64,000 bases of DNA from Symsagittifera roscoffensis (GCF_963678635.1 NC_087064.1:32681028-32745027); one strand, 5' to 3'; positions 9,375 through 58,484 are shown, counted from the first letter of the stretch. Program-made: numbers and translations. Notes: a model not told the origin generated them from the letters alone.

Positions 9375-9500
9375 ATGATATTTGATGGTCTGCAGTTTGC
9401 ATTTGAGTTTTCGACCAAAGATACGTTCGGCTTTAAGAACGAAGTCAAAACCCTCGTCAAGGACAATGGAGGGATTGTGTCCTACATTGTCAGCAAGCAG
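9375..9500 (+). CDS. PARP4: PARP4 (vault PARP)-like exon 1, BRCT N-terminus; start codon at 9375
   Basis: MIFDGLQFAFEFSTKDTFGFKNEVKTLVKDNGGIVSYIVSKQ aligns with human PARP4 MVMGIFANCIFCLKVKYLP..KKLQTDIKENGGKFSFSL. Donor CAG|GTACTG at 9501. An acceptor-like CTTTCAG sits immediately 5' of the ATG. Confidence 0.8.
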
Positions 9501-9619
9501 GTACTGTGCTAAAAATAATTTAGACAATCTAGAATTTATTAAGACAATTAAGAATTTCATAATTTGCTCAATACGAAAGGAATTTTTACGCATCTTCTTG
9601 AATTTTTGAGATTATTTAG

Positions 9620-9815
9620 GTGTTCGCTTTGTTGATCTCTGACCCTTCTTTGTCGAAGAACTCCAAGTGCAAGAAAGCACTTCATTCAGGCTTCAGGGTA
9701 CTAGATATCTCCTTTGTGAAGAAATGCATTGAGAGTGGCTGTGTCCTGGATCCAGGTCCCTTCAGTCTTGCCCTGTTGCGTTCCAAAGAGAGTTTCCAGG
9801 CTGGAGTTATCGAAG
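9620..9815 (+). CDS. PARP4: PARP4-like exon 2, BRCT C-terminus
   Basis: Acceptor TTATTTAG|G. VFALLISDPSLSKNSKCKKALHSGFRVLDISFVKKCIESGCVLDPGPFSL matches the human BRCT continuation (THIILDNADVLSQ...HIANPDFIWKSIREKRLLDVKNYDP). Donor GAAG|GTTGGT, phase 1. Confidence 0.75.
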
Positions 9816-10774
9816 GTTGGTTAGATGACATCTTTTAGACCTTTGATGCGATAGTTTCATGTCGCATGTTTCATAGTTTCTTTTTTTTTTAAATGTGTAC
9901 TCGATAAAACTTAGCTGGAAAACATTATTTTTGTGTCTCTATCAAATTTTACCGAGCTTTTTATGGTAATGATAATCTTTACTTCCTCTTTGAAGGAGTT
10001 TTAGCTAAAAGGATTTACCCAAGGTTCCTGATTAGTAGTTCTAGGAAAAGTTTACCGGGTAGGATAGAATGTGCTTGGGTACTTTAGAATGGGTATTTGG
10101 CACTCATCACTTTAGAGTTATGTGGGTAATTTGGTATTATGTAGATTGGTATATTGTTGATTTCTATATAGGGTATAATGGTATAGGGTAGAAGGAGGGC
10201 TTAGAATAGATTGAAGCCGGGTAGACTGTCCTGCCGTCATAATTATGTAAGAATTATTAGAGATGGGCCCTGCACGCATTTTTGAAAATACCGGATACAG
10301 GACAATTACTTTTGCGAAGCGAGTGTATTAGTACGAACCTTCTTTTTTTCTAACCTAAGTCGCAAACATTGGTGCCAATTTTAAGGCACCTTTACTGCTT
10401 TTTGATAGCATGTGCTTTGACATTCAAATAATAATAAGTTAACACAGTTGATGCATTTTTAATTCATCAAATTAACCGAAAAAAAGTGATTTGTTTCAAA
10501 CAACATAACAGTAATGAAAACTCGATTTCAGAAATTTTTTAACTCAATATATCTCGCAATTTTTTTAAATACATAATTTGTACATAATGTGGCTTTGTGC
10601 TTTGCGATTTGTTACATGCAAAGTTAGTGTGGATGTCTTGAGCTTGTTATATTTCAAATTATTACTTGAAAATTGAGTCTGTTTGTATTTGGTGCCACTT
10701 TGCTGAATGGCATTGGCAATTTATTAGCATATGTAGCTGCTTTATTCGTGACTAGTATTTGTCGGTTGTTAAGC

Positions 10775-10975
10775 TTGCGTGGCTGAGTGGATAGTGCGTG
10801 AAACTCAAAATCTCTTGATTGCATTAGGGCGCAAATTCGAATCCTACACGTAGCCGAGCTTTTGCTAATTCGAGGCTTATTTCTTCTTTTTCTGATTTCA
10901 CACGATAGAGCTGCTTTTTGGTCGTTTTCTCGCAATCGTTTGTGAAGCGCAGCTTCGCTTCTGTGTAAAACTTAC
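10775..10975 (+). mobile_element. tRNA-derived SINE copy (tRNA-like head, body, conserved hairpin tail)
   Basis: Head GTGGCTGAGTGGATAGTGCG...GCAAATTCGAATCC has A-box and B-box-like motifs. The tail is ...TTGTGAAGCGCAGCTTCGCTTCTGTGTAAAAC. It shares body and tail with the copy at 59580-59765. Confidence 0.6.
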
Positions 10976-11552
10976 CAGATGCACCGGATAATAACCGGAT
11001 ACCGGATAGATGCCAAATCGATGAAATAATTGATCGAATTCGATGTACATGAATGCAACAAGTTGATATTGCGTATGATCATGATGTAATTTGTTTTGAT
11101 ACACATTTTCCCACATAGTCAAAGAGCTGATGCTTTTGCTGGTAATTTTACAACTGGTATTTTTACTTGATAGTCGTCTAAATTTTGATTGAGTCATCTT
11201 ATACTCTAATTTTGATTTCAGCGTTTTTTTTTTCGAATTTTTTTTCGAAAAAAAAAAACGCGGTCAGTATCTGGTAATTATCCGGTGCAATTTTACCATA
11301 TATCCGTGCCGGAATCAGACAGTTGCCGGATAAACGGATATCAATTCCAGATACCACTATTCTGGTACAGTTCGAGCAATTATACAGCAAGTTACTAAAA
11401 GCGTGCATATTGCACCTAAAATGGCGCAACCTTTGTCTAGTTTATATCGGCTCATTTTCGTGTTTCCATATATACTGCAGCTGATTTGTTTAAATTCAAG
11501 AAAAAATCGCTCGCTGTTCTTCAATTTACAAAATATCTGTTTTTTTTTTTAG

Positions 11553-11623
11553 TTTGTTCTCCGGACGTCGGACCTGTTGAGACGGAAAAAGAAGAAAGTG
11601 TGTGTTTGAAAAACTTGCGGTTG
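11553..11623 (+). CDS. PARP4: PARP4-like exon 3 (short linker exon, putative)
   Basis: Poly-T tract then AG acceptor at 11551-52. The phase-1 entry restores the frame (..VIE-V-CSPDVGPVETEKEESVCLKNLRL). Donor TTG|GTGTAC is phase 0 and matches exon 4. There is no homology support. Confidence 0.4.
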
Positions 11624-12030
11624 GTGTACATGCTAATATACCATGTAATTGAAAATGGTTCGAGTTTAATCGTTTGTGAGGTGTTAGTTATGATGTTGTT
11701 TAGGTCGTACAAACTGAAACTCGATGATTTAGACCCTCACACGTACGAGTACTTGAAAGGTGTAGTTCTAATGGTAAGCTACATGAGTTATAAATATACA
11801 AAACGAAGCAAAAAAGTCGCCCATAAACTTACTACGCATCAATTTATGTCTCTGCTTTGAGAAATTTGGCGCTTCAATTGCAGAAGCAAATTGCGATTAC
11901 CAATGAAAATAGCTGAGCTAGAAAACAACAATTTTTTAAAATGTGATTTTGGCTTCAAAAAACTGAGGTTGTTTGGAAGGTTTTGAATTATATTAAGAGA
12001 AAAAAAATCGAAGATTCATAACGCTTTTAG

Positions 12031-12357
12031 AATGACGACAAACAAATTGCTTCGGTAGAAATTGACAAAATCAATGCCGTTTTTCATCTCTCGGATGGTT
12101 CCACGATCGACACCCCATTTGCGGTTATGAAAATCGAATCCATGATAGTTGATTCGATCGAGTTCTCAAAATGCATAATGGATGCTGAAATTTTTCCGTT
12201 TGAAAGTGGTCGGAAAGCTGTGGGATGTTACGCCGAGCTAATTCGGGTCTTTGAAGAGGACAAAGACATGAAGTCTTATTTCGGATGCAAAGAGTTGAAC
12301 GATACAACGAGTGTATCGACTGTTGCGCAACTAGTGGGATCACAGAAGTTCAGACAG
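12031..12357 (+). CDS. PARP4: PARP4-like exon 4 (BRCT-to-helical linker), GC-AG donor candidate
   Basis: Acceptor TTTTAG|AAT. A 109-codon stop-free frame runs NDDKQIASVEIDKINAVFHLSDGS...VAQLVGSQKFRQ. It ends at CAG|GCAAGT, a canonical GC-donor context. Cumulative length puts the next exon at residue ~241, matching the human PARP4 helical domain start at 242. Confidence 0.5.
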
Positions 12358-12630
12358 GCAAGTTTTCATGTATCAGCTGAATTTTCAAATTGTATTCAGT
12401 GTGTTTGCTTCCCGAACATGTATGTATCTCAAAGAAACTCGCCCGTCTATTCAAAAAACCATTTCTAGTACTTTCCTTTTATGAGGCTTTTAGAGCTCCG
12501 TTTTGCCAAATGTTTAAAAGATGTTCATGCTCACTTTTTTTTGTTATTACAGTCGATGAACGTAGTTCAGACTCTTTTATAGGCCGTGATGATTTTTTTT
12601 GAAAACGCTCCAATATTTTAGAGAAGTTTA

Positions 12631-12837
12631 TGCATAGATATTGAGGCGAAATGTCTTTTGGCTATTATTTTGCTCAAATTTACGTTTTTGACGGAAATTT
12701 TTTATATGATTGAAAAGATACATTACATTTCAAATTCGGAAAATTATATCTTTTCGATCATATAAAAAAATTTCGTCAAAAACGCAAATTTGAGCAAAAT
12801 AATAGCCAAAAGACATTTCGTGTCAATATCTATGCAT
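12631..12837. repeat. Near-perfect ~90-bp-arm palindrome (foldback) in PARP4-like intron 4
   Basis: TGCATAGATATTGAGGCGAAATGTCTTTTGGCTATTATTTTGCTCAAATTTACGTTTTTGACGGAAATTTTTTATATGATTGAAAAGATA is mirrored by its reverse complement across a ~30-bp centre at ~12735. Confidence 0.8.
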
Positions 12838-12989
12838 AAAATTCTCTATCATGTATTTAGCCGCACTATGCAAGGGATCTCTACCCTTATATTCGCGATG
12901 TGTTTGAGGTTACTTCATTATAGTTTGATTCAAAATATCGCCATAAGTGATGTAGTATTCCTTTCTTCAGTCCGATTCTATCCCTGAAT

Positions 12990-15500
12990 TTCACACTCTT
13001 CCGAAGTTTGTTTACTTGTCCGCTTGTTCGGATAAAAAGTCTTGAAATTGGACAAACAAAGATATAGGTAGAATTTGAGTCTTTTAGAAGTAAGTTCTTG
13101 TAATTTACTTTGCTTGAGTAGTCATTTTGGATCCACTTAAATCACTTTTTCTGTGCATTTTCTAATACTTCTTGGTTTTCCAATACCAGCAGGGACTTCC
13201 TTATAGGACGTCAGGGACAACCATTGACTTGTACAGATTTAGTTTGGTTCTTGATTCTAGTCTTGATGAGCTTCTTTTCAACATAAAGAGTACTTTTAAA
13301 GCTTTAATCACTGCAGCCTTGTTATGTGTATCCCACTCCAGATCAGCTGATATTGTAACACTCAAGTCTTTTTGAGTGTTCGTTCTCTCTATTCTTTTGC
13401 CAGAGAAGTAACAGGCATTTTCGAGTCTGTCATGGAAATGTGTAAGCATTTCTTCATATTCAGAAGTACTTTATGTTCTTCGCTCCATTTTTTTCCTCTT
13501 GAGAGATCGATTTAAAATCTAAGGCTTTTTGTGTCACTTGAAATTAATTTTGCGTCATCTGCGGACATCTGGGAAAGAGTTTTTACTTACCTCTGTTAGG
13601 TCGTTTTTATATATAACAAATAGCAGACTTGCTAGAATTGACCCTTGGGGCACTCCGCTTGTTACCAGAATTGGTTTTGATAATTCACCACAAACTTTAA
13701 GGCTCTGTTATCTGTTGATTAGATATGATTTCGTTAGTTTAAAAGTCCGCCCTCTCACCTAATTTGAACAGTTTCGACATTAGTATGCCGTGATTAACAT
13801 CATCAAAGGTTTTTTCGTAGTCAGTGTATATGATGTTGACTTTGCTCCCATTGTTAAGCGTTTTGAGAAACGTGGAAAATTGGTTTTTGGTGTCTGAACA
13901 GATAAATGAACAGACATCGTTCGAGATTATTGCCTATAATTTTCTACTTCTGATTTTGAGTCCCTCTTGTGGAGTGGACTCACAATTAATTTTTTCCAGT
14001 ATTTTGGGAAAATTTCGGTTTGTTTGACTTTATAAATTATTTGACTAAACGATTTACTTATACTTTTGCACAGCTTTTGTATAGCACTCATGGGAGATGG
14101 TCTGATCCACTAGCCCTTCTTGTTATTAAGTCGGATAAGATGTCCATGAATCTCTCGGGCGATATATCGAAATCATTAAATGGTTGCATAATCGGTGGTG
14201 AGTTATCAGGTTCAAATGCCGTTGATTTGTGGAAGATTTTGAGAATACTTTACAATGAGTTGGAGGATCGTTTGCGCAATCAGTTTTATAATGAACTGGC
14301 ACTGAAATGAGTGTTGTTTTTAAATTTCCAATTTTTGATAGTATTTAAATAAGTTGATCTGGTGTCCGCCAGCTTTGATTCATTTTCATATTTATCCTCA
14401 TTGATCTCTTCTTATGCGTCCTGTGATTTCTTGACTTTGCGCAGGTCTTGTGAGTGTTTGAGTTTGGCTGTGTTTAGTTTCTTTAGCATATGTGATGTTT
14501 CGGGTTTTATCCGTGGGGATAATATTGAGCGATGTTTTGTTCTACGCGGTGTGTGTTTCAGTACAATGTTTTTCAACCACACATACCATTGTTCGATCAG
14601 AACGTTTATATTACTCTAGTATATTCCATTGAATGGATAAGATTCAATGTCTCGCGAGATACTGCCGAAATCAGCTTAAGATTAGCTTATAGTTGCCGAC
14701 GAAACTCCAGCTCTTTAATAGTTTGTAACAAAATTCGTCTGTTTGATTTTGAGTATTATTGAGTTGTGGTTTGACCTTCACTGCTTTTTTGCAGAAAATG
14801 ATTTCGGTGTTCGTGTTTGTAAATATCAAGTCTAGTATCCCAGTTGATAATGCCGGGAAACCTACCAATTGCTGCATATCGTTTTCAAAGAGAAGGTAAA
14901 TCAGTTTTCCAGTTTCAGTATCGTTTAATTTATAGTCTGACCAGTCAACGTCGCTTATGTTGAAGTCACCATATATCGAAGTTGTATTATAATTTTTTGA
15001 TAGAATTATTATCTCAAAGATGTTGAATACAGTAGTATTGTGATGGGACCAGTGGGTTGATGAATCAGATTATAAGTACGTTATTGTCCTTATGTTTTAG
15101 TGAGCATGCGAATGTTGCTCCTGGTATTGAGTTTTGTAGTGCTAATTCTTCGGATATGAAAGTCTTTTCCATTGCATTGAGACACCCACCGTGTTTTGAA
15201 ACGAAATTGTTTTCTTTGCGATCAGGTCTGTATAGGGTATATTTTAGAAGAAAGAGCTCACTGTGATAAATAGTTGGTTATAACCAGGTTTCTGTTATCA
15301 TGAAAAAGTCAACCAGGCCAGTATTTATAAAGTTTGTTAGTTTTGTTATTTTTTCTCGATTTATGAGGCTACGAATGTTGAGTCCAAAGCCTTTCAAGTA
15401 GTTGTCGGTGTTCCTAATTGAAAGGTCAACCATTTAAGATGGTCTTTTTTTCGTAGATATAGCTTCCTGTCGCGAAGGTTTTGTTTTTAGTGACTCTCAG
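12990..15500 (-). mobile_element. LINE fragment; RT thumb region in ORF 13201-13449(-)
   Basis: The minus-strand ORF gives ...IERTNTQKDLSVTISADLEWDTHNKAAVIKALKVLFMLKR, which is the KDLGV.ISSDLKWD.HI-type RT C-terminal signature of CR1/L2-like elements. The rest is decayed. Confidence 0.45.
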
Positions 15501-15849
15501 CATCAATTAGCCGATGTCGTCCCAAGTCATTGTTTTCCATTTTAGCTTCTTCTTTTGTTAATTCTTTGCTGAAGAACGCAGGAGGATTGTAATGCTGCTG
15601 ATGCCAAGATTGCTCTCTACTTCCATTTTTTTGGTACCTTCAGTATGATTATTCTGTTTTTGTCGTCTCGTTTTTTCCCAATTCTTATTAGGTCGCTGAT
15701 ATCCGTTTCTAGACAATATTGCTTCAAGACTTACAAGATGATTCATTTGAGGACTTCATACGGTTTCTTGTACCAATAATTTTAGAACTCTTCATCAACT
15801 TCGCTTGGTACTCCGAGTCAAAGGCTCAAAGATTTCACCAGACTGAAGA

Positions 15850-15965
15850 ATGGGTATTGTCTGGGACCCTGAATCTTTGAAAAACTCAAAGACTACCCCA
15901 GTTTGGCATTTTTTTAATATAACTTGGGACCCTGAATCGAAGACTCAAAAGAGTACACCAAGTTT
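15850..15965. repeat. Short tandem duplication (~48 bp x 2)
   Basis: TGGGACCCTGAATC...AAAGACTACCCCAGTTTGGCA occurs twice head to tail. Confidence 0.6.
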
Positions 15966-18555: not shown

Positions 18556-18930
18556 GTTATTCTGATGGATGACAAAAACTCGATGCTGGATACCAGCATC
18601 ACGGAGCTCATGCAAACTCTGTATGGAGAGTCTCAGGCGACATTTGACGGGTTGCGCAACGGCTCGAAATCCGTGTTTGAGTTCAAACGGGAGACCGTAA
18701 ACGAAGCCATGGGATACTTGAAACAACTTAAAATAATATTACAAGGTGCGAAATTGAAAAAACAGGAAGCAATAGCAGGGGAGTTGAATCGCGGGGACAG
18801 TGATGTGGAGTCAGGTTCAGATTCGTTCAAGGTTGCATCTTTGACCAAGAAGTTCTTCCAGTGCATTCCTCACAAGAGAACATTTGTGCTTGACTTGAAA
18901 ACTGTAGTTCACAAATTGGACATGTGTCAG
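18556..18930 (+). CDS. PARP4: PARP4-like exon 5, PARP alpha-helical regulatory domain
   Basis: Acceptor TTTTCCAG|GTT. ...SDSFKVASLTKKFFQCIPHKRTFVLDLKTVVHKLDMCQ matches the PARP1 helical-domain motif RFYTLIPHDF...VEMLDNLLDIEV. Donor CAG|GTCTGC is phase 0. Confidence 0.85.
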
Positions 18931-19407
18931 GTCTGCAATTTTGTTCTCTGTTTTCGTTTTGTTTTTCCGGCAACATAACGAAGCCCAATTATTCAACAGT
19001 CTCGTGAAACATATCATGATGCAGAAAGAGGTAGCAGATATAAACCCTGTCAACCGTAATTTGGCGTCCAAAAGTTGGGTATTATCAGAAATTATCAGAG
19101 ATTTTACTCAAGTAGTACAGCGTTTAAGCAATACTTAAAAGCTAATCATGGAACGTGTAACCCAGGCATTTTGGGGGTTTTCGAGTTTCTTTTTTTTTTC
19201 ATTGAATTCGAGTCTTTTTTGAATGAAAGACTATCTAATGGAAGGTTCTGCCAATTGCAAGGCTACCATAGCGTTTAAAAATTCGATTATTACAGTCTCC
19301 TGGAAAGCATGGATAACGGTTTTTCCGAAACTCTTATTACGTTAATCGTAAAACGTTTTTATTTATGTTTAGTAATTACGTTTATCAAATATGAATTCTT
19401 TTTGCAG

Positions 19408-19688
19408 GTTATTTTGGACATGAACTCAATTGGAGAGAGCACAAATTGGGCCCCCGTTCCCCCAGTTATGTCGATGTACAAGGCTCTGGGAGTGCGAATC
19501 ACGCCACTTCCTGCTGTCGAACTAGAGGCTCTTTCACAATCGCTACAGTTTTCGAACAGGGCAGAAGTAACTCAGGTGTTTGGACTTCTGAAACCTGCTC
19601 AGATGTGTTCGTTCAAGTCGACTGGAAAGGAAGTGCAAACATTGTATCACGGAACAAGTCCTGCCAACTTGATCGGAGTTTTGTCGAG
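19408..19688 (+). CDS. PARP4: PARP4-like exon 6, N-terminal part of PARP catalytic domain (H-G-S)
   Basis: Acceptor TTTTGCAG|GTT. ...TGKEVQTLYHGTSPANLIGVLSR matches PARP1 LWHGSRTTNFAGILSQG and human PARP4 LLHGSPVQNIVGILCRG. Donor AG|GTAAAT is phase 2. Confidence 0.85.
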
Positions 19689-19744
19689 GTAAATGCACTT
19701 AAGAAAATCAGACTCCCTCCTCCACAGTTGTGCCTACGTATTTA

Positions 19745-22700
19745 ATAGATTTACTAGTAAAACTTTTGTTTTATTTGTCCGTTTGCAATAAAACTTGGAT
19801 TGTGGTTTAAGTAATTGAATCAAAACGTGTTTGGTTTCTCCTGCTTACGTATTATGTTATAGTATGAACTCTCTTTTTTTTCAACCTAAGTCGTAAATAT
19901 TGTTGCGACGCAAATATTTTTGCGACAAAAAGTGTTCATTTTGAAAGTGTTCATTTTGATCAATAACCGGCTATTAAGTACAGCCAATACTAAGGATTTT
20001 AACACAGACTATTCTATTACAAATAGCACTTAAGCTTCAAGCTATCGTGGATCTGTAGCGTAGAGGTAGGAAAGCAGGCCCGCAACAATATAAGAGGGTT
20101 CGAACCTGGGCAGGGTCTGATATTTTTAATGAAATTTTTCGCGCACTAGCTAAAATGCGTCCGCTGTATAAATTGAGGCATGTTAGCTGGTAAATTTCTC
20201 TTTTTTTTCAAATTGACTGGTACTTCTAATGCGTCATAATTGGCTAGCGTCACTTAGCAATTATGTAGTTTCATAATTGGCTTGCGAAATTTTGTAGACT
20301 CAAAGTTTTACTCATTAAGATTTTCCCAGTACCGTTATCGGTCATTTTTTTTCTTGGTGTGTGCGAAGTGCAACTTCGCCTCTGTGTAAAAAGTGTGAAA
20401 CAATTAATGACACAATGTGATCGATGCTTGCGAAAAATAGGGAAGAAAAGAGAACCAAAATTTCGATGAAGTTTTTTTTTTGTTTTATTTGTTCGTTTGC
20501 AATAAAACTTGGATTGTGGTTTAAGTAATTGAATCAAACGTGTTTTATTTCTCCTATTTACGTATTTTGTTAAATAGTGCTGAGTTAAATTAACCGGACA
20601 AAACGCGTTAAACTTGAAATTTAAAACCCGTTTTTCTCAAATTGGGTTGAGTTTAGGTGAAAACTTATGAAGACAAAACTTGCTTAAAATTTTAGCAGAA
20701 TTAATATGGTGTAATTTGTTTTGCGAATTTCAGGCCCAAAATTTTACCCCAAAAATGGGTTATGTTGGCTTTTCTTAGTTAATCAAAATTTACGCCAGAA
20801 ATACCCAGTCGATCACAGAAATAATTATATCAAAGTGAGCCCATTACGTAGCCCAACAAACTTTATGAAGGGTGTTTTCTCCAAAATATTGTATAAGTTA
20901 ATTTATTTTTGTTTGATAGACAATTTTTAAACAATTTGCAATTTTTTTTGGAGAATATACCCTTCATAAAGTTTATTGGACTACGTAATGGGCTCACTTT
21001 GATATAATTATTTCTGTGATCGACTGGGTATTTTTGGCGTAAGTTTTGATTAACTAAGAAAAGCCAACATAACCCATTTTTGGGGTAAAATTTTGGGCCT
21101 GAAATTCGCAAAACAAATTACACCATATTAATTCTGCTAAAATTTTAAGCAAGTTTTGTCTTCATAAGTTTTCACCTAAACTCAACCCAATTTGAGAAAA
21201 ACGGGTTTTAAATTTCAAGTTTAACGCGTTTTGTCCGGTTAATTTAAATCAGCACTGTAGTATGAATTGTATTTTGGTGTAATATGAACTCTCTTTTTCC
21301 AACCTAAGTCGCAAATATTAGTGCTCTTTTTGAAAGTGCTCTTTTATTGCAGTATATGCATAAGATTAATAACCAGCGATCAAGTACAGCCAATGCTAAG
21401 GATTTTAACACAGACGATTATATTACAAATAGCCCTTAAGCTTCAAGGTATCATGGATCTGTAGCGTAGAGGTAGGAAAAGAGACACGCAACAAAAGAGA
21501 GGGTTCGAACCGGGGCATGGTCGGATGTTTTTAATGAAATTTTTCGCGTACTAGCTAAAATGCGTCCGCTCTATAAATTGAGGCATGTTAGCTGGTAAAT
21601 TTCTCTTTTTTTTTTCAAATTGACTGGTACTTCTAGTGTGTCATAACTGGCTTGCGTCACTTTGCTATGATGTAAGTCTCATAATTGGCATGCGAAATTT
21701 TGTAGACTCAAAGTTTTACTCATTAAGATTTTCCCAGTATCGTTCTCGGTCATTTTTTTAGTAATTGAATCAAACGTGTTTAAGTAATTGAATCAAACGT
21801 ATTTTATTTCTCCTGTTTACGTGTTTTGTTATAGTATGAAACGTATTTTGGTATAGTATGAACTCTCTTTTTTTCAAACTAAGTGGCAAATATTGTTGCG
21901 ACGCAAATATTGTTGCGACAAAAAGTTTTCGTTTTGAAAGTTTTCTTTTTGATCATTAACCAGCAATTAAGTACAGCCAATTCTAAGGATTTTAACACGG
22001 ACTATTATTTTACAAGTGGCACTTAATCTTCAAGGTATCTTGGATCTGTAGCGTAGAGGTAGGGAAGCAGACCCGCAACAAAGTAAGAGGGTTCGAACCT
22101 GGGCAGGGTCGGAGGTTTTTAATGAACTTTTTCGTGTACTAGCTTAAAGGCGTCCGCTCTATAAATTGAGGCATGTTAGCTGGTAAATTTCTTTTTTTTT
22201 CAAATTGACTGGTACTTCTAGTGTTTCATAACTTGCTTGCGTCACTTTGCTATGATGTAGTCTCATAATTGGCATGCGAAATTTTGTAGACTCAAAGTTT
22301 TACTCATTAAGATTTTCCCAGTAGCGTTATCGGTCATTTTTATCTTGGTGTGTGCGAAGTGCAACTTCGCCTGTGTAAAAGTTGTGAAACAATTAATGAC
22401 ACAATGTAATCGATGCTTGCGAAAAATAGGGAAGAGAAGAGAACCCAAATTTCGATGAAGTTTTGTTTTGTTTTATTTGTCCTTTGCTATAAAGCTTGGA
22501 TTGTGGTTTAAGTAATTGAATCAAAACTTATTTTATTTCTCCTGTTTACGTGTTTTTTTATAGTATGAAACGTATTTTGGTATAGTATGAACTCTCTTTT
22601 TTTCGAACTAAGTCGCAAATATTGTTGCGACGCAATTATTGTATCGAAAAAAAGTTTTCATTTTGAAAGTTTTCTTTTTGATCATTAACCAGCAATTAAG

Positions 22701-25700
22701 TACAGCCAATGCTAAGGATTTTAACACGGACTATTATATTACAAGTGGCACTTAAGCTTCGAGGTATCATGGATCTGTAGCGGAGAGGTAGGGAAGCAGA
22801 CCCGCAACAAAGTAAGAGGGTTCGAACCTGGGCAGGGTCGGAGGTTTTTAATGAACTTTTTCGTGTACTAGCTTAAAGGCGTCCGCTCTATAAATTGAGG
22901 CATGTTAGCTGGTAAATTTCTTTTTTTTTCAAATTGACTGGTACTTCTAGTGTGTCAATACTGGCTTGCGTCACTTTGCAATGATGTAGTCTCATAATTG
23001 GAATGCGAAATTTTGTAGACCCAAAATTTTACTCATTAAGATTTTCCCAGTATCGTTTTCGGTCATTTTTTTTAGTAATTGAATCAAACGTGTTTAAGTA
23101 ATTGAATCAAACGTGTTTTATTTCTCCTATTTACGTATTTTGTTATAGTATGAATTGTATTTTGGTATAGTATGAACTCTCTTTTTTCAACCTAAGTCGC
23201 AAATATTAGTGCTCTTTTTGAAAGTGCTCTTTTATTGCAGTATATGCATAAGATTAATAACCAGCGATCAAGTACAGCCAATGCTAAGGATTTTAACACA
23301 GACGATTATATTACAAATAGCCCTTAAGCTTCAAGGTATCATGAATCTGTAGCGTAGAGGTAGGAAAAGAGACACGCAACAAAAGAGAGGGTTTGAACCG
23401 GGGCATGGTCGGATGTTTTTAATGAAATTTTTCGCGTACTAGCTAAAATGCGTCCGCTCTATAAATTGAGGCATGTTAGCTGGTAAATTTCTTTTTTTTT
23501 CAAATTGACTGGTACTTCTAGTGTGTCATAACTGGCTTGCGTCACTTTGCTATGATGTAAGTCTAATAATTGGCATGCGAAATTTTGTAGACTCAAAGTT
23601 TTACTCATTAAGATTTTCCCAGTATCGTTCTCGGTCATTTTTTTTAGTAATTGAATCAAACGTGTTTAAGTAATTGAATCAAACGTATTTTATTTCTCCT
23701 GTTTACGTGTTTTGTTATAGTATGGAACGTATTTTGGTATAGTATGAACTCTCTTTTTTTCAAACTAAGTGGCAAATATTGTTGCGACGCAAATATTGTT
23801 GCGACAAAAAGTTTTCATTTTGAAAGTTTTCTTTTTGATCATTAACCAGCAATTAAGTACAGCCAATTCTAAGGATTTTAACACGGACTATTATTTTACA
23901 AGTGGCACTTAAGCTTCAAGGTATCTTGGATCTGTAGCGTAGAGGTAGAGAAGCAGACCCGCAACAAAGTAAGAGGGTTCGAACCTGGGCAGGGTCGGAG
24001 GTTTTTAATGAACTTTTTCGTGTACTAGCTTAAAGGCGTCCGCTCTATAAATTGAGGCATGTTAGCTGGTAAATTTCTTTTTTTTTCAAATTGACTGGTA
24101 CTTCTAGTGTTTCATAACTTGCTTGCGTCACTTTGCTATGATGTAGTCTCATAATTGGCATGCGAAATTTTGTAGACTCAAAGTTTTACTCATTAAGATT
24201 TTCCCAGTAGCGTTATCGGTCATTTTTATCTTGGTGTGTGCGAAGTGCAACTTCGCCTGTGTTAAAGTTGTGAAACAATTAATGACACAATGTAATCGAT
24301 GCTTGCGAAAAATAGGGAAGAGAAGAGAACCAAAATTTCGAAGAAACTTTGTTTTGTTTTATTTGTCCTTTGCTATAAAGCTTGGATTGTGGTTCAAGTA
24401 ATTGAATCAAAACTTATTTTATTTCTCCTGTTTACGTGTTTTTTTATAGTATGAAACGTGTTTTGGTATAGTATGAACTCTCTTTTTTTCGAACTAAGTC
24501 GCAAATATTGTTGCGACGCAAATATTGTATCGAAAAAAAGTTTTCATTTTGAAAGTTTTCTTTTTGATCATTAACCAGCAATTAAGTACAGCCAATACTA
24601 AGGATTTTAACACGGACTATTATATTACAATAGGCACTTAAGCTTCGAGGTATCATGGATCTGTAGCGGAGTGGTAGGGAAGCAGACCCGCAACAAAGTA
24701 AAAGGGTTCGAACCTGGGCAGGGTCGGAGGTTTTTAATGAACTTTTTCGTGTACTAGCTTAAAGGCGTCCGCTCTATAAATTGAGGCATGTTAGCTGGTA
24801 AATTTCTTTTTTTTTTCAAATTGACTGGTACTTCTAGTGTGTCAATACTGGCTTGCGTCACTTTGCAATGATGTAGTCTCATAATTGGAATGCGAAATTT
24901 TGTGGACCCAAAATTTTACTCATTAAGATTTTACCAGTATCGTTCTCGGTCATTTTTTTTAGTAATTGAATCAAACGTGTTTAAGTAATTGAATCAAACG
25001 TGTTTTATTTCTCCTATTTACGTATTTTGCTATAGTATGAATTGTATTTTGGTATAGTATGAACTCTCTTTTTTCAACCTAAGTCGCAAATATTAGTGCT
25101 CTTTTTGAAAGTGCTCTTTTATTGCAGTATATGCATAAGATTAATAACCAGCGATCAAGTACAGCCAATGCTAAGGATTTTAACACAGACGATTATATTA
25201 CAAATAGCCCTTAAGCTTCAAGGTATCATGGATCTGTAGCGTAGAGGTAGGAAAAGAGACACGCAACAATAGAGGGTTCGAACCGGGGCATGGTCGGATG
25301 TTTTTAATGAAATTTTTCGCGTACTAGCTAAAATGCGTCCGCTCTATAAATTGAGGCATGTTAGCTGGTAAATTTCTCTTTTTTTTTTCAAATTGACTGG
25401 TACTTCTAGTGTGTCATAACTGGCTTGCGTCACTTTGCTATGATGTAGTCTCATAATTGGCATGCGAAATTTTGTAGACTCAAAGTTTTACTCATTAAGA
25501 TTTTCCCAGTATCGTTCTCGGTCATTTTTTTAGTAATTGAATCAAACGTGTTTAAGTAATTGAATCAAACGTATTTTATTTCTCCTGTTTACGTGTTTTG
25601 TTATAGTATGAAACGTATTTTGGTATAGTATGAACTCTCTTTTTTTCAAACTAAGTGGCAAATATTGTTGCGACGCAAATATTGTTGCGACAAAAAGTTT

Positions 25701-27690
25701 TCATTTTGAAAGTTTTCTTTTTGATCAATAACCAGCTATTAAGTACAGCCAATGCCAAGGATTCTAACACGGACTATTATATTACAATTAGCACTTAAGC
25801 TTCAAGGTATCATGGATCTGTAGCGTAGAGGTAGGGAAGCAGGCCCGCAACAAAATAAGAGGGTTCGAATCTGGGCAGGGTCTGATGTTTTTATTGAAAT
25901 TTTTCGCGTACTAGCTAAAATGCGTCCGCTGTATAAATTGAGGCATGTTAGCTGGTAAATTTCTTTTTTTTTCAATTTGACTGGTACTTCTAGTGTTTCA
26001 TAACTTGCTCGCGTCACTTTGCTATGATGTAGTCTCATAATTGGCATGCGAAATTTTGTAGACTCAAAGTTTTACTCATTAAGATTTTCCCAGTAGCGTT
26101 ATCGGTCATTTTTTTCTTGGTGTGTGCGAAATGCAACGTCGCCTCTGTGTAAAAGTTGTGAAACAATTAATGACACAATGTAATCGATGCTTGCGAAAAA
26201 TAAAGAAGAGAAGAGAACCAAAATTTCGATGAAGTTTTTTTGTTTTATTTGTCCGTTTGCAATAAAGCTTGGCTTGTGGTTTAAGTAATTGAATCAAAAC
26301 GTGTTTTATTTCTCCTGTTTACGTATTTTGTTATAGTATGAAACGTATTTTGGTATACTATGAACTCTTTTTTTTGCAACCTTAGTCGCAAATACTGTTG
26401 CGACGCAACTATTTCTGAGACAAAAATTGCTCATTTTGGAAGTGTTCATTTTGATCAAAAACCAGCTATTAAGTACAGCCAATGCTAAAGTTTTTAACAC
26501 AGACGATTATATTGAAAATAGCCCTTAAGCTTCAAGCTATCGTGGATCTGTAGCGTAGAGGTAGGGAAGCAGGCCCGCAACAAAATAAGAGGGTTCGAAC
26601 CTGGGCAGGGTCTGATGTTTTTATTGAAATTTTTCGCGTACTAGCTAAAATGCGTCCGCTGTATAAATTGAGGCATGTTAGCTGGTAAATTTCTCTTTTT
26701 TTTCAAATTGACTGGTACTTCTAATGCGTCATAATTGGCTTGCGTCACTTAGCAATTATGTAGTTTCATAATTGGCGTATGAAATTTTGTAGACTCAAAG
26801 TTTTACTCATTAAGATTTTCCCAGTAGCGTTATCGGTCATTTTTTTCTTGGTGTGTGCGAAGTGCAACTTCGCCTCTGTGTAAAAGTTGTGAAACAATTA
26901 ATGACACAATGTAATCGATGCTTGCGAAAAATAGGGAAGGGAAGAGAACCAAATTTTCGATGAAGTTTTTTTTTGTTTTATTTGTCCGTTTGCTATAAAG
27001 CTTGGATTGTGGTTTAAGTAATTGAATCAAAACGTGTTTTATTTCTCCTGTTTACGTGTTTTGTTATAGTATGAAACGTATTTTGGTATAGTATGAAGTC
27101 TCTTTTTTTCAACCTAAGTTGCAAATATTGTTGCGACGCAAATATTGTTGCGACAAAAAGTTTTCATTTGGAAACTTTTCATTTTGATCATCAACCAGCA
27201 ATTAAGTACAGCCAATGCTAAGGATTTTAACACCGTCTATTATTTACAAATAGCACTTAAGCTTCAAAGTATCATGGATCTGTTGCGTAGAGGTAGGGAA
27301 GGAGACCCGCAACAAAATAAGAGGGTTTGAACCTGGGCAGGGTCGGATGTTTTAAATGAACTTTTTCGTGTACTAGCTTAATTGCGTTCGCTCTATAAAT
27401 TGAGGCATGTTAGCTAGTAAATTTGTTTTTTTTTCTAAACAAAAAGCAAATTAAATTCATTATTGCTAAAGCGTCATAATTGGCTTGCGAATTTTTTAGT
27501 CTCGAAGTTTTACTCATTAAGATTTTCCCAGTAGCGTTATCGGTCATTTTTTTCTTGGTGTATGCGAAGTGCAACTTCGCCTCTGTGTAAAAATTGTGAA
27601 ACATTTAATGACACAATGTAATCGATGCTTGCGAAAAGTAGGGAAGGGAAGAGAACGAAAATTTCGAAAGTTTTTTTATAGGAAGAAAAT
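19745..27690. repeat. SINE-derived tandem satellite with higher-order repeat structure, filling intron 6 of the PARP4-like gene
   Basis: The anchor CGTCCGCTCTATAAATTGAGGCATGTTAGCTGGTAAATTTC recurs at ~20160, 21570, 22160, 22880, 23450, 24040, 24770, 25340, 25925, 26650 and 27390. Monomers are ~570/590/725 bp. Variant-specific strings (e.g. GAAAAGAGACACGCAACAAAAGAGAGGGTTCGAACCGGGGCATGGTCGGATG at 21300, 23190 and 25080) define a ~1.89-kb higher-order unit repeated 3 times. Monomers carry A-box/B-box-like motifs (GTAGCGTAGAGG ... GGGTTCGAACC) and the SINE hairpin tail GCGAAGTGCAACTTCGCCTCTGTGTAAAA. Confidence 0.85.
20575..21257. mobile_element. Foldback MITE (~340-bp inverted arms) inserted into one satellite monomer
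   Basis: ORFs 20721..20930(+) and 20863..21111(-) encode the same peptide, so the two arms are near-identical inverted repeats. The element is centred at ~20915. Terminal sequence is AGTGCTGAGTTAAATTAACCGGACAAAACGCG. Other monomers lack this block. A related copy lies at 58485-58830. Confidence 0.8.
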
Positions 27691-27841
27691 TTTTTAATAG
27701 GAAGTTTTGTTCTCCTGAGTTACAATGCAATGGAATGAGATCTTAGGCGTTCATCAAAGTGTAAACTCAAATTTTAACTTTCTTTGGTAAATTTTTGGCT
27801 CTTTCAACAGTCCAAGTTACTATCTATGAAATATGTTTTAG

Positions 27842-28293
27842 GGGACTCATACTTCCTAATGTTGCGACCAATGAGTTTGGGATACCTTTGACAGACTTCG
27901 GCAAGCTGGGTCGAGGCATCTACTTCTCAGAACAGATGAATACGAGTTTAAAGTACTGCTCCCCAGCTCAACATGGGCTCAGATACCTTCTCATGTGTGA
28001 AGTGGTTGTCGGAAAGCAGTTCGAGACCTCGGATCTGATGCCCGAAAGAACCACAGCTCCAGAAGGGTTCGATTCTGTTGTTGCGAACCCTGATTCGCAT
28101 AACTTCAATGGAGATTCTGAGGTAGTGGTGTATAATACGAACCAAGTCAGATTGAAGTATCTGATTGAGTTGAAGGTCGAAGGCGATAATCAGAAGAATG
28201 GTTGGGAGTTCAATTCTCAGCTCTTGTTACCTGGTTTTGGTGGTGATGAGGTCGATCTAGCCAGCAGGGGAAAAGAGAACGACTTGAGCTTCG
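27842..28293 (+). CDS. PARP4: PARP4-like exon 7, C-terminal part of PARP catalytic domain (Tyr and catalytic Glu)
   Basis: Acceptor TGTTTTAG. The phase-2 entry gives LSR|GLILPNVATNEFGIPLTDFGKLGRGIYFSEQMNTSLKYC...YLLMCEVVVGK...APEGFDSVVA...DSEVVVYNTNQVRLKYLIELK. This is near-collinear with human PARP4 GSGIYFSDSLSTSIKYS...LLLICDVALGK...PPGYDSVHG...DEFVVYKTNQVKMKYIIKF. Donor TCG|GTGAGA is phase 1. Confidence 0.9.
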
Positions 28294-28429
28294 GTGAGAT
28301 TTTATGGGAGATATTTTTGTTGAATTTTGAAGTTCTGGCCTTAATTGCCAAAAATGGTTGCCTGTGTTTGCCTTTTTTTCAATCCAGAACTAACACTGAT
28401 GACCATCAGTAGAGAATTTAGAAAAAGGG

Positions 28430-28750
28430 GTTGGAAGACTACCCTTAAGGATTCGACCCTCGTGCCGACTCAAAAGGTCTACCTTGTTCTATTTTCGGCG
28501 CCAATAATTACTAATTTTGAGCGGGAAGCGCGCGCCGAAAAATGCAATTTTTTGGTCTAAATTTTGCAAAAAAAGCCCAACAGCGCCTTTTATGGCCTGT
28601 TTTTTTTCAAAATTTTGCCTGCATCGCAGAAAATCCGGTCAAATCAGCCCGGGAAATCAATTATTGAACCTAAAAACAACCAAAAAAAGTTCAGCAAAGT
28701 TTTTAAAAATCCGCCCCCCCCCCCCCTCGAGAAAATCCTAGATCCTCCCT
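28430..28750. repeat. Dispersed repeat (second copy at ~63560-63740) with adjacent poly-C tract
   Basis: ...TTTTGAGCGGGAAGCGCGCGCCGAAAAATGC...TTTTGCCTGCATCGCAGAAAAT... is matched at 63620-63720. C14 tract at 28711-28726. Confidence 0.6.
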
Positions 28751-28827
28751 GATGACCTACTTTAAAATAAAGTATTAAATGGAAGTTCAAAAGCTAAATT
28801 TCAAGATATGGCATCTTCGTTATATCA

Positions 28828-29099
28828 GATCTTGAAAAGCTGAAGCATCTGCTACCGCCGGAACCAGAAGCTGGACTGCTGCCGAAGAATGGCTCCAGAA
28901 ATTCCGTTCCACTCCAGGCCGTACATGTACGAGCGAAGCTAGTTGACCTTGCGGCTAAGGTTGTGGTTCTACAAGTGTATGAGAACAGGAACATAACTGA
29001 GTCGATTGAGGCCAAATACGTGTTCCCTCTTGACGAGTTCTGCAGTGTCGTTGGCTTCGAGGCATTTATTAATGGCAAACATGTTGTCGGAGAGGTCAA
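28828..29099 (+). CDS. PARP4: PARP4-like exon 8, VIT domain N-terminus (coordinates +/-1)
   Basis: Acceptor TATATCAG with phase-1 entry. ...SVPLQAVHVRAKLVDLAAKVVVLQVYENRNITESIEAKYVFPLDEFCSVVGFEAFINGKHVVGEVK matches human PARP4 VPLEDVHIKGRIIDTVAQVIVFQTYTN...IEAKYIFPLDDKAAVCGFEAFINGKHIVGEIK. Donor AAG|GTAAAA is phase 0. Confidence 0.85.
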
Positions 29100-29479
29100 G
29101 GTAAAACAAAATTTTCTTGCGGAATCCTCATCTATCTTTATTCAAAAAGATAAATGCAACTTATATCAAAAAAATTAATGCAACAAAATTATATTTTCTA
29201 CTTGAGAAATATCAATCCAACTTATGCAGGCTGCTTGTTATCAATTAGTTCATAGAAAAGCATCAGTAACGGCGTGGCGACCATTCGTCGCAAGCCATAT
29301 TTGCAGCATTTGTAAAAAGCAACTATTTGCAGCACGCGACGACTCATAGCATGCGACAATTAGTAGCGGTAGAAGCTTTGATCAGATCAAAGAAATTAGA
29401 TGAAACATTTAAATTAAAGAACAAAGAAACTAAAAATCAAAATTGAACGATAGGCCCTTAAGTTGCTTGAGAATATTTT

Positions 29480-34330: not shown

Positions 34331-34549
34331 CAGTTTGGTATTGGTCACAAAGTTTGAGGAAGTTAGAAAAAACTTGCGACAAATTCAATTGTAAGCCTAA
34401 GTTACTCGAGTAAAATAACTAACGTAAGTATGAAAAAAAATGCAGCAAAATGTCGAGATTTTAATCAAACGTTCCAGCAATATCAAACTGAGAAACAAAG
34501 GGAGCAAATAGAATAAAAACTTAATTTTTAAAACGACTATGTAATTTAG

Positions 34550-34960
34550 GTGAAAGAAACAGCCCGAAAGGAGTACAAAGAAGCAATTTCTCAAGGTCAC
34601 GGCGCCTATCTGATGGAAGAGGACAAAGAAATTCCAAATGTGTTCTCAGTTGCGGTCGGTAATCTGCCTCCTAAAGCGACAGTCGTGATTAAAATCACGT
34701 ATGTCACCGAACTTCAAGTGGAAGCATCTGATCTGAAGTTCTCGATTCCTGGAGCAGTTGCACCTTGGAGTGTTGAAAATGTCAAAACTGATACTCTGCA
34801 GTCAACTGTAAAGAGTGTGTTATTAAATAATGGCGGATTTGGCGATAGAAGTGATATGGAGAAAGTTTTGAAGCATAAGTTTACTCTGCAAGTGAATATG
34901 GAAATGCCTTTCAAAATAATGCACCTGAAATCAGAGACTCATCCGCACTTGAAAACAAAG
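34550..34960 (+). CDS. PARP4: PARP4-like exon 9, VIT domain C-terminus
   Basis: Acceptor ATTTAG|GTG. VKETARKEYKEAISQGHGAYLMEEDKEIPNVFSVAVGNLPPKATVVIKITYVTEL matches human EKEEAQQEYLEAVTQGHGAYLMSQDAPDVFTVSVGNLPPKAKVLIKITYITEL. Donor AAG|GTGAGC is phase 0. Confidence 0.9.
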
Positions 34961-35157
34961 GTGAGCTATTTCCCAAAATTCAGTAATTATGTGCAAGTTT
35001 CATTTTTCATAGCTTTTCAACAAATTAGGTTTACACTATTATGAATGGGGTGTTTCTTTGTTCTTAACGTGAATATTATAACTGGGTTATTTGTGACCTC
35101 ATTAGTATGATTTAAAGAATTATGATTTTTTTTCGAATGATTGTTTTTTTTGTCTAG

Positions 35158-36405
35158 AGAACAGAGACAATGGCTGTGTGTGAACTACCAAACGGGACTT
35201 CGGATGGATCCGACGCCTCATCTCTCGGGTCACAAGGGTTTGAACTCCTGATTGGACTCAACGAGATCCACAAACCCAGAATGTGGGTGGAAAAGTTGCC
35301 CTTGCAGCCAAACGAACAAGCTACGATGCTAACATTCTATCCCGAATTTCAAACAAAGTCTGGTAGATATTCCGCGAGCAATCAGCAAGTTTTGATTCTT
35401 CTTGATTTATCAAACTCAATGAAGCATGATGATGCGTATTACTCGGCCATACAAGTTGCATGTCTGACATTGTGGAAAATTCCTGAACATTTTCTGTTTA
35501 ATGTAATCGTTTTTGGTACTGATTTTGAAGAACTCTTCTACAAAAGTGTACCCAATAGCGCGAAAAACAGAACAAAGGCAATTGAGTATTTGACTGAAAA
35601 GTCTAACACGTTCGAGCCTATGGGTGGTACGGATGCTAATAGACCTATAAGCATCGCCTGGGAACTTTTTAACAGCAATATGAAAGACTTTGCTAGAAAG
35701 CAGAAATTGAAATCGTTCAAAACAACTTTCTTGTTGATAAGCGATGGTCATATTTCACAGCCTACACAAAGTTCAATTTCATCGCTTTTTGATCAAAATA
35801 AGAGTCTCAATTTTCGACTATTTGCAAACGGTGTCTCGTCTTCGTGTGATAAGCATACGTTAAGAGTTCTGTGTGATAAAGGCGCTGGATATTTCGAGTT
35901 TTTCGACACCGCAACGAAATCATCCTGGATGAAAAAGGTCAAAGGTCAAGTGGAAAAATTTTCCCAGCACGTGCTGACTAATGTGTCAATCAAGTGGGTG
36001 CTACATGAAGACAAAGATGATGCCCATTTATTCGATCTTTCGAACCCTGACCGTGTCATTCAAGCGCCAGCTAACTTAACGGCACTTTTTGACGGCCAAC
36101 GAGTTGTGGTGTATGGCATCGTGTCATTTTGTCAGCAAGCGATTTTGGAGGCGGAATTAAATGGACACAAAGTTTCGACAGTTGTTTCAACATCTGATCA
36201 CATGGCTACTGAGGGTCATCTAGTACACCAGTTGGCTGCCCGAGCAGTGATACGAGACTGGGAGACGAGTGCCGTGTTACACTCGGATAAAGCGACTCAC
36301 GAGTTTGCGAAAGCCGAGTTGAAAAATACGATCATTCGGTTGAGTTTGAAACATCAAGTTGTTACGCCTTTCACGAGCTTCATTGCTGTCGAGAAAAGAG
36401 ATAAG
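35158..36405 (+). CDS. PARP4: PARP4-like exon 10, vWA domain and post-vWA segment (in-frame stop at 36415-36417 if read through)
   Basis: Acceptor TGTCTAG|AGA is phase 0. The 416-codon frame includes ...LPLQPNE (human LPRMWVEKHPEKE), VILLDLSNSM (vWA MIDAS DxSxS), LLISDGH, and ...QLAARAVIRDWE...VVTPFTSFIAVEKRDK (human KLAARALIRDYE...ITQFTSFVAVEKRDE). Donor AAG|GTTCTG at 36406. Confidence 0.9.
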
Positions 36406-36453
36406 GTTCTGATTTAATGATTCGAAAAGTTCTGAATTATACTGTATGTTTGA

Positions 36454-36459
36454 ATAAAC
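36454..36459 (+). promoter_or_regulatory. AATAAA hexamer ~37 nt after the in-frame stop that follows read-through of the exon-10 donor (candidate intronic polyadenylation site)
   Basis: Read-through past the exon-10 donor reaches TAA at 36415-17, then AATAAA at 36454-59. In AT-rich DNA this could be chance. Confidence 0.2.
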
Positions 36460-36478
36460 ACTAGTTTTGTTGTTTTAG

Positions 36479-36871
36479 AATGAAAAATTGAATATCGACA
36501 ATAGCTTTATTTACAAAATTATATCTGACGAAGATGTTGATGCATTGAAATATATCGGATGGGAGAACGAATTAATCATAAAGGTTTGTTTTTTTTCACT
36601 TAGCTTCAAGAGACACCTCACAGCTCGCTGTTTTTTTTTAAATTCAACTAGTTTTTCTAATAAAGCATTTATGGATGGATGCCATTTATGGAATAATAAG
36701 AGTTGGGTTCATGAGATGTTTCAGACGCCGAGTGAAAATTTCTCCGAATTAGTGGAACAGGGAATGAAGCAGAAGAGCTATTCGGTTCTCGAGGCCAATT
36801 GTTCCTTCAGCACCGCATACCAACTTCTACAGGACAATATCGAGTCTATCGACGTGGAAAAACTTCTTGAG
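36479..36871 (+). CDS. PARP4: PARP4-like C-terminal coding segment(s); one exon, or two with a short intron ~36584-36665
   Basis: Acceptor TGTTTTAG|AAT is phase 0. NEKLNIDNSFIYKIISDEDVDALKYIGWENELIIK resembles human PARP4 ...VSELIAKEDVDFLPYMSWQGE immediately after the vWA domain. The stop-free frame continues to ..DNIESIDVEKLLE, ending at the donor GAG|GTTTCA (phase 0). The internal T-rich stretch looks intronic, but I could not phase it consistently. Confidence 0.45.
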
Positions 36872-58429: not shown

Positions 58430-58484
58430 TTTTGAACGTCGTGTCAATGATCTCGGTTGAATTTAACTTGCGCCGTAACTATAC

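Follow-up and report, generated by a model that had tools for sequence, protein, structure and literature searches.

A 64-kb stretch of AT-rich eukaryotic DNA from Symsagittifera roscoffensis (NC_087064.1:32681028-32745027, approximately 36% GC; the whole stretch is hereafter called the window) carries on its + strand what we regard, with a probability of roughly 0.85, as an intact, intron-rich metazoan gene for an ADP-ribosyltransferase of the PARP4 family (clade 5). The gene is of the invertebrate type, comprises 16 exons between positions 9375 and 42681 and probably two more extending to 58429, and no MVP-interaction (MINT) domain was found in it. An initial annotation of the window had placed a complete vault PARP, similar to human PARP4, at 9375–36871. 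The PARP4-like identity is borne out by our analysis: the encoded protein belongs to the PARP4 family (clade 5 PARPs) as an orthologue and has a core made of BRCT, helical, ADP-ribosyltransferase (ART), VIT, and vWA domains, and it matches the full-length human PARP4 chain 11jf_P at E = 4e-172 (residues 314–1308 against human residues 273–1214). It is thus a new member of a known and widespread family, for which the earlier family assignment was correct and the earlier gene model incomplete.

Between 9.3 and 36.9 kb, Pfam matches on open segments of the + strand begin with a weak BRCT signal and go on with the PARP regulatory and PARP catalytic domains, a VIT domain split into two pieces, and a vWA domain. 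Roughly joined end to end, the segments give a draft protein of 1,017 amino acids, which served as the query for the homologue search. This search yielded 602 proteins at E ≤ 1e-10, of which the best 120 are all PARP4 or "PARP4-like" proteins; they include homologues from hemichordates, echinoderms, amphioxus, molluscs, an annelid, cnidarians, and vertebrates. The lowest E-value is 7e-192, but identities are only 36–41% over 90–99% of the query, and the protein database contains no close relative of the source species; given this E-value and a score of approximately 1103 bits against the family hidden Markov model (HMM), the PARP4 observation is real and far beyond chance. Anchoring by tblastn with 12 PARP4 proteins and by a PARP4 profile HMM built from 30 homologues gave matches only at collinear + strand segments, namely 9375–9503, 9632–9811, 18658–18936, 19405–19689, 27831–28202, 28867–29112, 34553–34945, 35161–36405, and 36497–36571, and the N-terminal part of the protein is collinear with nine homologues in a 10-sequence alignment. 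In a neighbor-joining tree of 31 PARP4 proteins and the window protein, the latter lies on a long branch and its placement is unstable (52% with echinoderm long branches, 19% with a bivalve). The open reading frame (ORF) of exon 11 had no exact counterpart in the contig collection, and the protein collection contains no entry for the PARP4 body.

The domains of the core follow one another in the order described for human PARP4. The BRCT domain is present at residues 2–89 of the spliced protein (Pfam BRCT_2, 33.4 bits for a cut-off of 27.3; BRCT, 29.9 bits for a cut-off of 21.3). The PARP regulatory profile (PARP_reg) scores 19.5 bits, below its cut-off of 26.8, as does deer PARP4 with 23.9 bits; the helical domain is nevertheless recognizable directly upstream of the ART domain, because residues 314–601 align with the crystal structure of the human helical and ART domains (8sx1, residues 33–332) at E = 1e-40. 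The ART domain itself reaches 71.3 bits on the spliced protein (Pfam PARP), and in the alignment with 8sx1 its H-Y-E triad is intact, LYHGT, GRGIYFSE, and DSEVVVY being paired with human LLHGS, GSGIYFSD, and DDEFVVY. Next come a VIT domain (115.8 bits, residues 662–775) and a vWA domain (VWA_3, 48.4 bits, residues 937–1109), whose metal ion-dependent adhesion site (MIDAS) is intact in the translation (DLSNS, GGTD, SDG). On the basis of the intact triad, the protein is predicted to be an NAD+-dependent ADP-ribosyltransferase acting on protein targets, probably as a mono-ADP-ribosyltransferase. Human PARP4 is classed as a mono-ADP-ribosyltransferase.

These results agree in large part with the initial annotation, which had described all human PARP4 domains in collinear order: BRCT, helical, ART, VIT, and vWA domains are indeed found in that order. 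The set of human domains is not complete, however, since MINT was not detected. The three catalytic residues that it listed are all present and aligned with those of human PARP4, the first of them in an HGT rather than an HGS motif. Exon boundaries were said to fall on the domain coordinates of human PARP4; the domain coordinates are collinear with the human ones but offset by approximately +30 to +40 residues (residues 314–602 against human 273–573).

Exon structure

The gene model was built from the homologue anchors: each boundary was read in the sequence, and the chain was then assembled. The 16-exon coding sequence (9375–42681) amounts to 4,587 nt and encodes 1,528 amino acids with no internal stop, and the 18-exon form extending to 58429 would encode 1,613; both forms are devoid of in-frame stops across 4.6–4.8 kb of coding sequence. 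Splice sites are canonical and phases agree at each of the 15 introns (17 for the 18-exon form), the donors being GT and the acceptors AG except for a single GC donor at 12358 (CAG/GCAAGT; the slash marks the exon end). The earlier chain of 12 exons was likewise phase-consistent, and its 10 GT-AG introns and one GC-AG intron were reproduced; it omits, however, a 70-nt exon at 11704–11773. We recovered this chain exactly by ending exon 3 at 11623 instead of 11625 (11553–11623) and skipping exon 4, which places the helical exon at residue 241.

All exons lie on the + strand. Exon 1 (9375–9500, residues 1–42; donor CAG/GTACTG) carries the start codon, at the position where homologues begin with M-x-I/L-F, and the first half of the BRCT domain; the second half is encoded by exon 2 (9620–9815, residues 43–108), which ends in phase 1, and both exons are supported by tblastn and HMM matches. 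Exon 3 (11553–11625, residues 108–132; donor GGT/GTACAT) encodes a linker and was placed by phase and homologue alignment. The omitted 70-nt exon 4 (11704–11773, residues 132–155; donor ATG/GTAAGC) encodes SYKLKLDDLDPHTYEYLKGVVLM. Its product, ..LDPHTYEYLKGVVLM, corresponds to the conserved YEVAKxxVF motif and is aligned with this motif in nine of nine homologues, and when the exon is included the score against the family HMM goes up from 1086.7 to 1102.8 bits (∼16 bits). Because of the aligned motif and the gain in score, we regard exon 4 as a real exon, which may be alternatively spliced. Exon 5 (12031–12357, residues 156–264) covers the region between the BRCT and helical domains, where its VGSQKFRQ motif matches IGSxKF of the homologues, and ends at the GC donor. 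A GT donor after 12369 would add ASFH and scores 4.7 bits worse than the GC variant against the family HMM; the GC donor is thus the preferred candidate.

The helical (regulatory) domain is encoded by exon 6 (18556–18930, residues 265–389), which aligns with 8sx1 and contains a 22-residue insertion, and ends in exon 7 (19408–19688, residues 390–483), where the ART domain begins and where the catalytic histidine is located (LYHGT). Exon 8 (27842–28293, residues 483–634) provides the ART core with the tyrosine and glutamate of the triad, its raw ORF matching Pfam PARP at 5e-14. A linker and the first half of the VIT domain are found in exon 9 (28829–29100, residues 634–724) and the second half in exon 10 (34550–34960, residues 725–861), both identified by Pfam, tblastn, and HMM. 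Exon 11 (35158–36405, residues 862–1277; tblastn E ∼ 1e-80, HMM 414 bits) encodes the vWA domain with its MIDAS, followed by a conserved region, and exon 12 (36479–36583, residues 1278–1312; tblastn and HMM) a conserved EDVDxLxYxGWE motif. Exon 13 (36725–36871, residues 1313–1361; donor GAG/GTTTCA) encodes a helical linker whose homology to the C-terminal regions of the Amphiura, Ptychodera, and Saccoglossus PARP4-like proteins is weak but collinear.

MINT domain and vaults

The initial annotation considered the gene to be a complete vault PARP at 9375–36871, with all the domains of human PARP4, and its presence to imply vault particles. Several observations favor this interpretation: the window protein has the core domains and the catalytic triad in an arrangement collinear with that of human PARP4, a VPARP homologue "may" be among the components of sea urchin vault preparations (PMC550661), and the absence of PARP4 coincides with the absence of vaults in insects, nematodes, fungi, and plants (PMC4245714). 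With respect to human PARP4 (Protein Data Bank 9bw6, 9bw7, 11jf, 8sx1, and 8swy), the order of BRCT, helical, ART (H-Y-E), VIT, and vWA domains is common to both proteins. Their identity, however, is only ∼38%, the helical domain of the window protein has its 22-residue insertion, and the proline-rich region and C-terminal MINT domain of human PARP4 are absent, a helical linker, a ubiquitin-like (Ubl) domain, and an actin-like fragment being found instead.

The missing domain is the one that matters for vaults, as the docking of human PARP4 in the vault is achieved by its C-terminal MINT domain (PMC12280208). An HMM based on the C-termini of 73 homologues was run against all frames of the window, the gene model, and the 2.3 kb that follow the window, which were recovered from the ENA contig ERZ25878734:ctg12278l, and gave no MINT match; the best match within the window (E = 0.2) falls on a VIT exon, and no PARP4-related coding sequence was found in the additional 2.3 kb. 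MINT is equally undetectable in 30 of the 33 invertebrate PARP4-like proteins tested, including all the mollusc, annelid, hemichordate, and amphioxus entries. In this set a MINT-like domain is clear only in the jellyfish Rhopilema (4e-35), those of Asterias (∼0.004–0.01) and Hydractinia (0.05) being marginal. Moreover, the MVP residues that contact PARP4 are reported to be conserved in vertebrates only (PMC12280208). Whole-window scans gave no Rfam match, Vault RNA included, and no tRNA genes.

The interpretation as a complete vault PARP is also weakened by the gene structure, because 36871 is the last base before a donor with an open frame, PARP4-type exons follow downstream, and the chain lacks one internal exon (exon 4). 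Finally, PARP4 homologues are reported in all animals except insects and nematodes, and some eukaryotes possess vaults without PARP4 (PMC4245714). As the gene is near-universal in animals, its presence is the default expectation and carries little information on vaults; by itself it does not imply a vault system. Taken together, these points make a complete vault PARP that would signal vault particles improbable, and we favor an invertebrate-type PARP4 gene that continues beyond 36871.

Downstream exons and mobile elements

The ATG at 9375 does open the exon chain. The 3' limit of the initial annotation did not hold: position 36871 is the last exon base before a donor (GAG/GTTTCA), the frame is still open there, and further PARP4-type exons are found at 41218–42681 and probably at 57142–58429. 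Exons 14–16 join the chain in phase and encode a helical linker followed by a domain of the ubiquitin family. Exon 14 (41218–41393, residues 1362–1420; donor CCA/GTAAGT, phase 2) encodes helical linker sequence and is collinear by blastp with the Aplysia, Nucella, Littorina, and Ptychodera PARP4-like proteins; no 14-3-3 domain was found in this linker in a Pfam scan. Exon 15 (41625–41799, residues 1420–1478) contains linker sequence and the N-terminal half of the Ubl domain, and exon 16 (42529–42681) its C-terminal half (..GIPADQQRLI..MVLRLRGG). Exon 16 has two possible ends: the sequence NIYKKNL followed by a TAA at 42679–42681, seven codons after the GG, or a donor G/GTAACA after 42655, in phase 1.

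The Ubl domain (PF00240; 52.8 bits for a cut-off of 25.4, residues 1450–1519) terminates in a di-glycine. It is identical to ubiquitin at 33 of 74 residues, including the whole of LRLRGG, and keeps L8, I44, H68, and V70; K48 and K63 are not kept. Exon 16 matches six mollusc PARP4-like proteins (tblastn, E 1e-6 to 5e-5), and blastp shows the C-terminal region to be collinear with the Aplysia protein over the EDVD motif, the helical linker, and the Ubl domain, and with the Nucella, Littorina, and Mercenaria proteins over the Ubl domain. On these alignments, the Ubl exons very probably belong to the PARP4 gene.

Farther downstream, the probable exon 17 (57142–57282) encodes an acidic linker and a fragment similar to the N-terminus of actin (..APAVVMDCGSLYVKAGLSIDESPLQFKSLVGRPRHQ); its acceptor is in phase 1, which fits the donor after 42655. 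The probable exon 18 (58290–58429) continues with VMVGMGQKDCYVGSRAE.. and a 30-residue tail, up to a TAA at 58427–58429. The two together encode GDPTAYNEEVAPAVVMDCGSLYVKAGLSIDESPLQFKSLVGRPRHQ/G/VMVGMGQKDCYVGSRAE.., then the stop. The actin-like piece is ∼55 residues long and corresponds to the N-terminus of actin, including the D-loop sequence HQGVMVGMGQKD. It falls short of a complete actin fold (PF00022), the Pfam Actin score being 22.3 bits, below the 27-bit cut-off, for profile positions 4–52 of 410. A tblastn search of the window with ACTB found only actin residues ∼7–59 encoded anywhere, which rules out a real actin gene at 57–58 kb. The segment matches PARP4-like proteins of seven species (tblastn, E down to 9e-9), and in blastp comparisons with the Ptychodera, Magallana, Saccostrea, Pinctada, Mytilus, and Rhopilema proteins E-values range from 1e-16 to 6e-12; it carries the bivalve PARP4-type signature VMDxGSLxxKAG and not VVDNGSGMCKAG of actin. 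The actin-like exons are therefore reasonably good candidates for inclusion in the PARP4 transcript, or for an alternative 3' end, an assignment held with less assurance than that of the Ubl exons.

An alternative is that PARP4 ends at an in-frame stop at 36893–36895, which is reached by reading through the 36871 donor, and that the Ubl exons (41.2–42.7 kb) and the actin-like exons (57.1–58.4 kb) represent one or two separate downstream genes or exon relics. This stop lies only 22 nt beyond the donor and an AATAAA is found at 36958, several annotated homologues stop soon after the EDVD..GWE motif (e.g., Mytilus P0016 and Crassostrea P0026), and no known protein has both appendages. However, AATAAA is common by chance at 36% GC, and exons 14–16 lack a start upstream, exon 14 opening directly at an acceptor with a stop in front of it. 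The phases all agree, exons 12–14 are collinear with the C-terminal regions of the Amphiura (E = 9e-6) and Ptychodera PARP4-like proteins, and exons 14–16 align with gastropod PARP4-like proteins. Each appendage, moreover, is found inside PARP4-like proteins of other phyla. An early end of PARP4 thus appears unlikely, and slightly more so than a complete vault PARP.

The reading that we favor, a PARP4 gene extending to 42681 and probably to 58429, has several points against it. All its junctions are predicted from homology, phase, and consensus, and the one between 42655 and 57142 spans 14.5 kb on the basis of a phase match, expected by chance approximately once in three, and homology only. 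A search with the C-terminal 336 residues, dominated by polyubiquitins, ubiquitin-actin fusions, and actins, returned no database protein in which a single PARP4 contains both a Ubl domain and an actin-like fragment, so that the two parts could be alternative 3' ends. A MINT exon could lie beyond the 66.3 kb examined. Lastly, the window protein forms a long branch of unstable position in the tree, and its ART domain scores 71 bits on Pfam compared with 103–128 bits in homologues, which makes an altered or reduced activity possible.

A pseudogene in decay, a chimeric region, or an assembly error would also account for the long branch, the ∼40% identity, and introns heavily invaded by mobile elements, but this is very improbable, as 16–18 exons are free of stops and frameshifts, splice sites are intact, the protein retains its catalytic triad, its MIDAS, and the patch residues of ubiquitin, and the independent 21.6-kb contig ERZ25878734:ctg12278l, which extends from window position 44671 to approximately 66318, is 99.99% identical to the window over 44671–63607, for that part only. 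ERZ25878734 is a metagenome-type assembly whose contig names (ctgNNNNl) resemble those given by metaMDBG, which would suggest that it contains host DNA in a long-read metagenome assembly.

Retroelements, a Polinton-like element, and tandem arrays occupy the long introns. Intron 7 (19700–27400) contains a higher-order tandem array in which units of ∼730 bp follow one another with spacings that alternate between 729 and 1157 bp, with a period of ∼1887 bp, in eight copies that are 73–99% identical; it also contains an inverted repeat, in which ORFs at 20721–20930 (+) and 20863–21111 (−) encode the same peptide. In intron 13 (38652–39672), tandem repeats with a period of 148–162 bp are present in 2.4–2.8 copies with 76–89% matches. 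Non-LTR (long terminal repeat) retrotransposon fragments, related to reverse transcriptase and ORF1, lie on the − strand at 500–8400, 5' of the gene, and at 13200–15500, in intron 5. An AT-rich block at 44000–48200 (31–33% GC) shows reversed GC and AT skews and + strand ORFs, one of which (46313–47179) is a retrotransposon gag ORF (Pfam Retrotrans_gag, E = 2.5e-5); the block, which lies in the putative 14.5-kb intron, probably represents an LTR retroelement. It is followed at 48600–55000 (−) by a multicopy element that looks like a Polinton/Maverick. The latter carries an ORF for an A32-like packaging ATPase (53050–53781, with homologues that contain PF04665) and, at 51350–51637 (−), a stretch that by eye resembles an integrase fragment, with no Pfam match. 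The ATPase ORF has a 100% identical match on ERZ25878734:ctg12278l, and paralogous copies with 98.8% identity occur on ERZ25878734:ctg15746l and on ERZ25071366:ctg22271l (840 kb). No other host genes were seen in the window.

Modular C-termini in invertebrate PARP4-like proteins

Actin, ubiquitin-related, or 14-3-3 domains have been described as additions to clade 5 PARPs (PMC4245714), and two groups of PARP4-like proteins resemble the downstream part of the present gene. The first consists of the mollusc Ubl-type proteins (Littorina P0009, Mercenaria P0010, Bulinus P0011, Nucella P0014, and Aplysia P0029), which are automatic NCBI annotations and have their core in common with the window protein. 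They contain a ubiquitin-family domain ending in RLRGG, located 80–200 residues beyond EDVD..GWE, thus at the same relative position and collinear in blastp. Their Ubl domain is closer to ubiquitin than that of the window protein (57 of 76 identical residues in Mercenaria, compared with 33 of 74), and none of them has the actin-like fragment. Some also end in acidic tails with ribosomal P-stalk-like motifs (DMGFGLFD), which the window protein lacks; no such motif (MGFGLF) was found in the window. After the ubiquitin domain of Aplysia P0029, Nucella P0014, and Mercenaria P0010, these motifs read ..DEDMGMGLFD.., ..PDIGFGLFDDD.., and ..EEMGFSLFEYD.., respectively.

The second group includes PARP4-like proteins of bivalves, hemichordates, echinoderms, and a jellyfish that contain an actin fragment (Magallana P0027, Saccostrea P0015, Pinctada P0013, Mytilus P0033, Ptychodera P0005, Amphiura P0003, and Rhopilema P0023), in which the same ∼55-residue segment is found near the C-terminus. 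The segment shared with the window protein, ..VMDxGSLxxKAG..VGRPRHQGVMVGMGQKD.YVG.., is preceded by an acidic linker in both. None of these proteins has a ubiquitin-like domain, and that of Rhopilema also keeps a MINT-like C-terminal domain. A third resemblance is with the ubiquitin-actin fusions of Rhizaria (e.g., Amorphochlora P0254), which have the same layout, that is, a ubiquitin ending in LRLRGG, a short acidic linker (∼12 residues in the window), and the N-terminus of actin. These fusions are, however, stand-alone genes with a complete actin of 375 residues, whereas the window has only residues ∼7–59 at the end of a PARP, and we consider the likeness as one of layout only. By its predicted domains, the C-terminus follows the invertebrate rather than the vertebrate PARP4 pattern, and the Ubl domain shared with molluscs, together with the bivalve-type actin fragment, may hint at a spiralian affinity.

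In the favored reading, the PARP4 core, made of the BRCT domain, the helical regulatory domain, the ART domain with H-Y-E, and VIT-vWA with the MIDAS, would occupy the N-terminal two-thirds of the protein. It would be followed by the EDVDxLxYxGWE motif, the helical linker, a ubiquitin-derived domain, and, most likely in the same transcript, a copy of the actin N-terminus. Such a protein would transfer ADP-ribose from NAD+ onto protein targets, and its BRCT, VIT-vWA, Ubl, and actin-like parts may serve as targeting or interaction modules; any link with vaults would need a docking unlike that of human PARP4. A bolder scenario, which we consider unlikely, is that PARP4 in this lineage swapped MINT for a Ubl domain in tandem with a mimic of the actin N-terminus and D-loop, copying the layout of ubiquitin-actin fusions, and became a vault-independent enzyme targeted through the ubiquitin- and actin-binding machinery, in which a deubiquitinase-type cleavage after LRLRGG could free the actin-like peptide. 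If true, this cleavage could leave a 170-kDa ADP-ribosyltransferase with a free di-glycine end that may be conjugated or ADP-ribosylated.

The finding of PARP4 is in itself ordinary, since nearly all animals other than insects and nematodes are expected to have a homologue, and PARP4-like genes are already automatically annotated in molluscs, annelids, echinoderms, hemichordates, amphioxus, and cnidarians. The gene model is now corrected for one missed exon and for a 3' end shifted downstream by 5.8 kb or more, and probably by 21.6 kb. Having a PARP4 gene is also separated from having vaults, the docking domain being undetectable here and in most of the invertebrate homologues tested. The C-termini of invertebrate PARP4 proteins are modular, with 14-3-3-like, ubiquitin-like, actin-fragment, P-stalk-like, or MINT parts, and the mildly unusual feature of this locus is that it may combine two C-terminal modules, each known separately in other invertebrate PARP4-like proteins.

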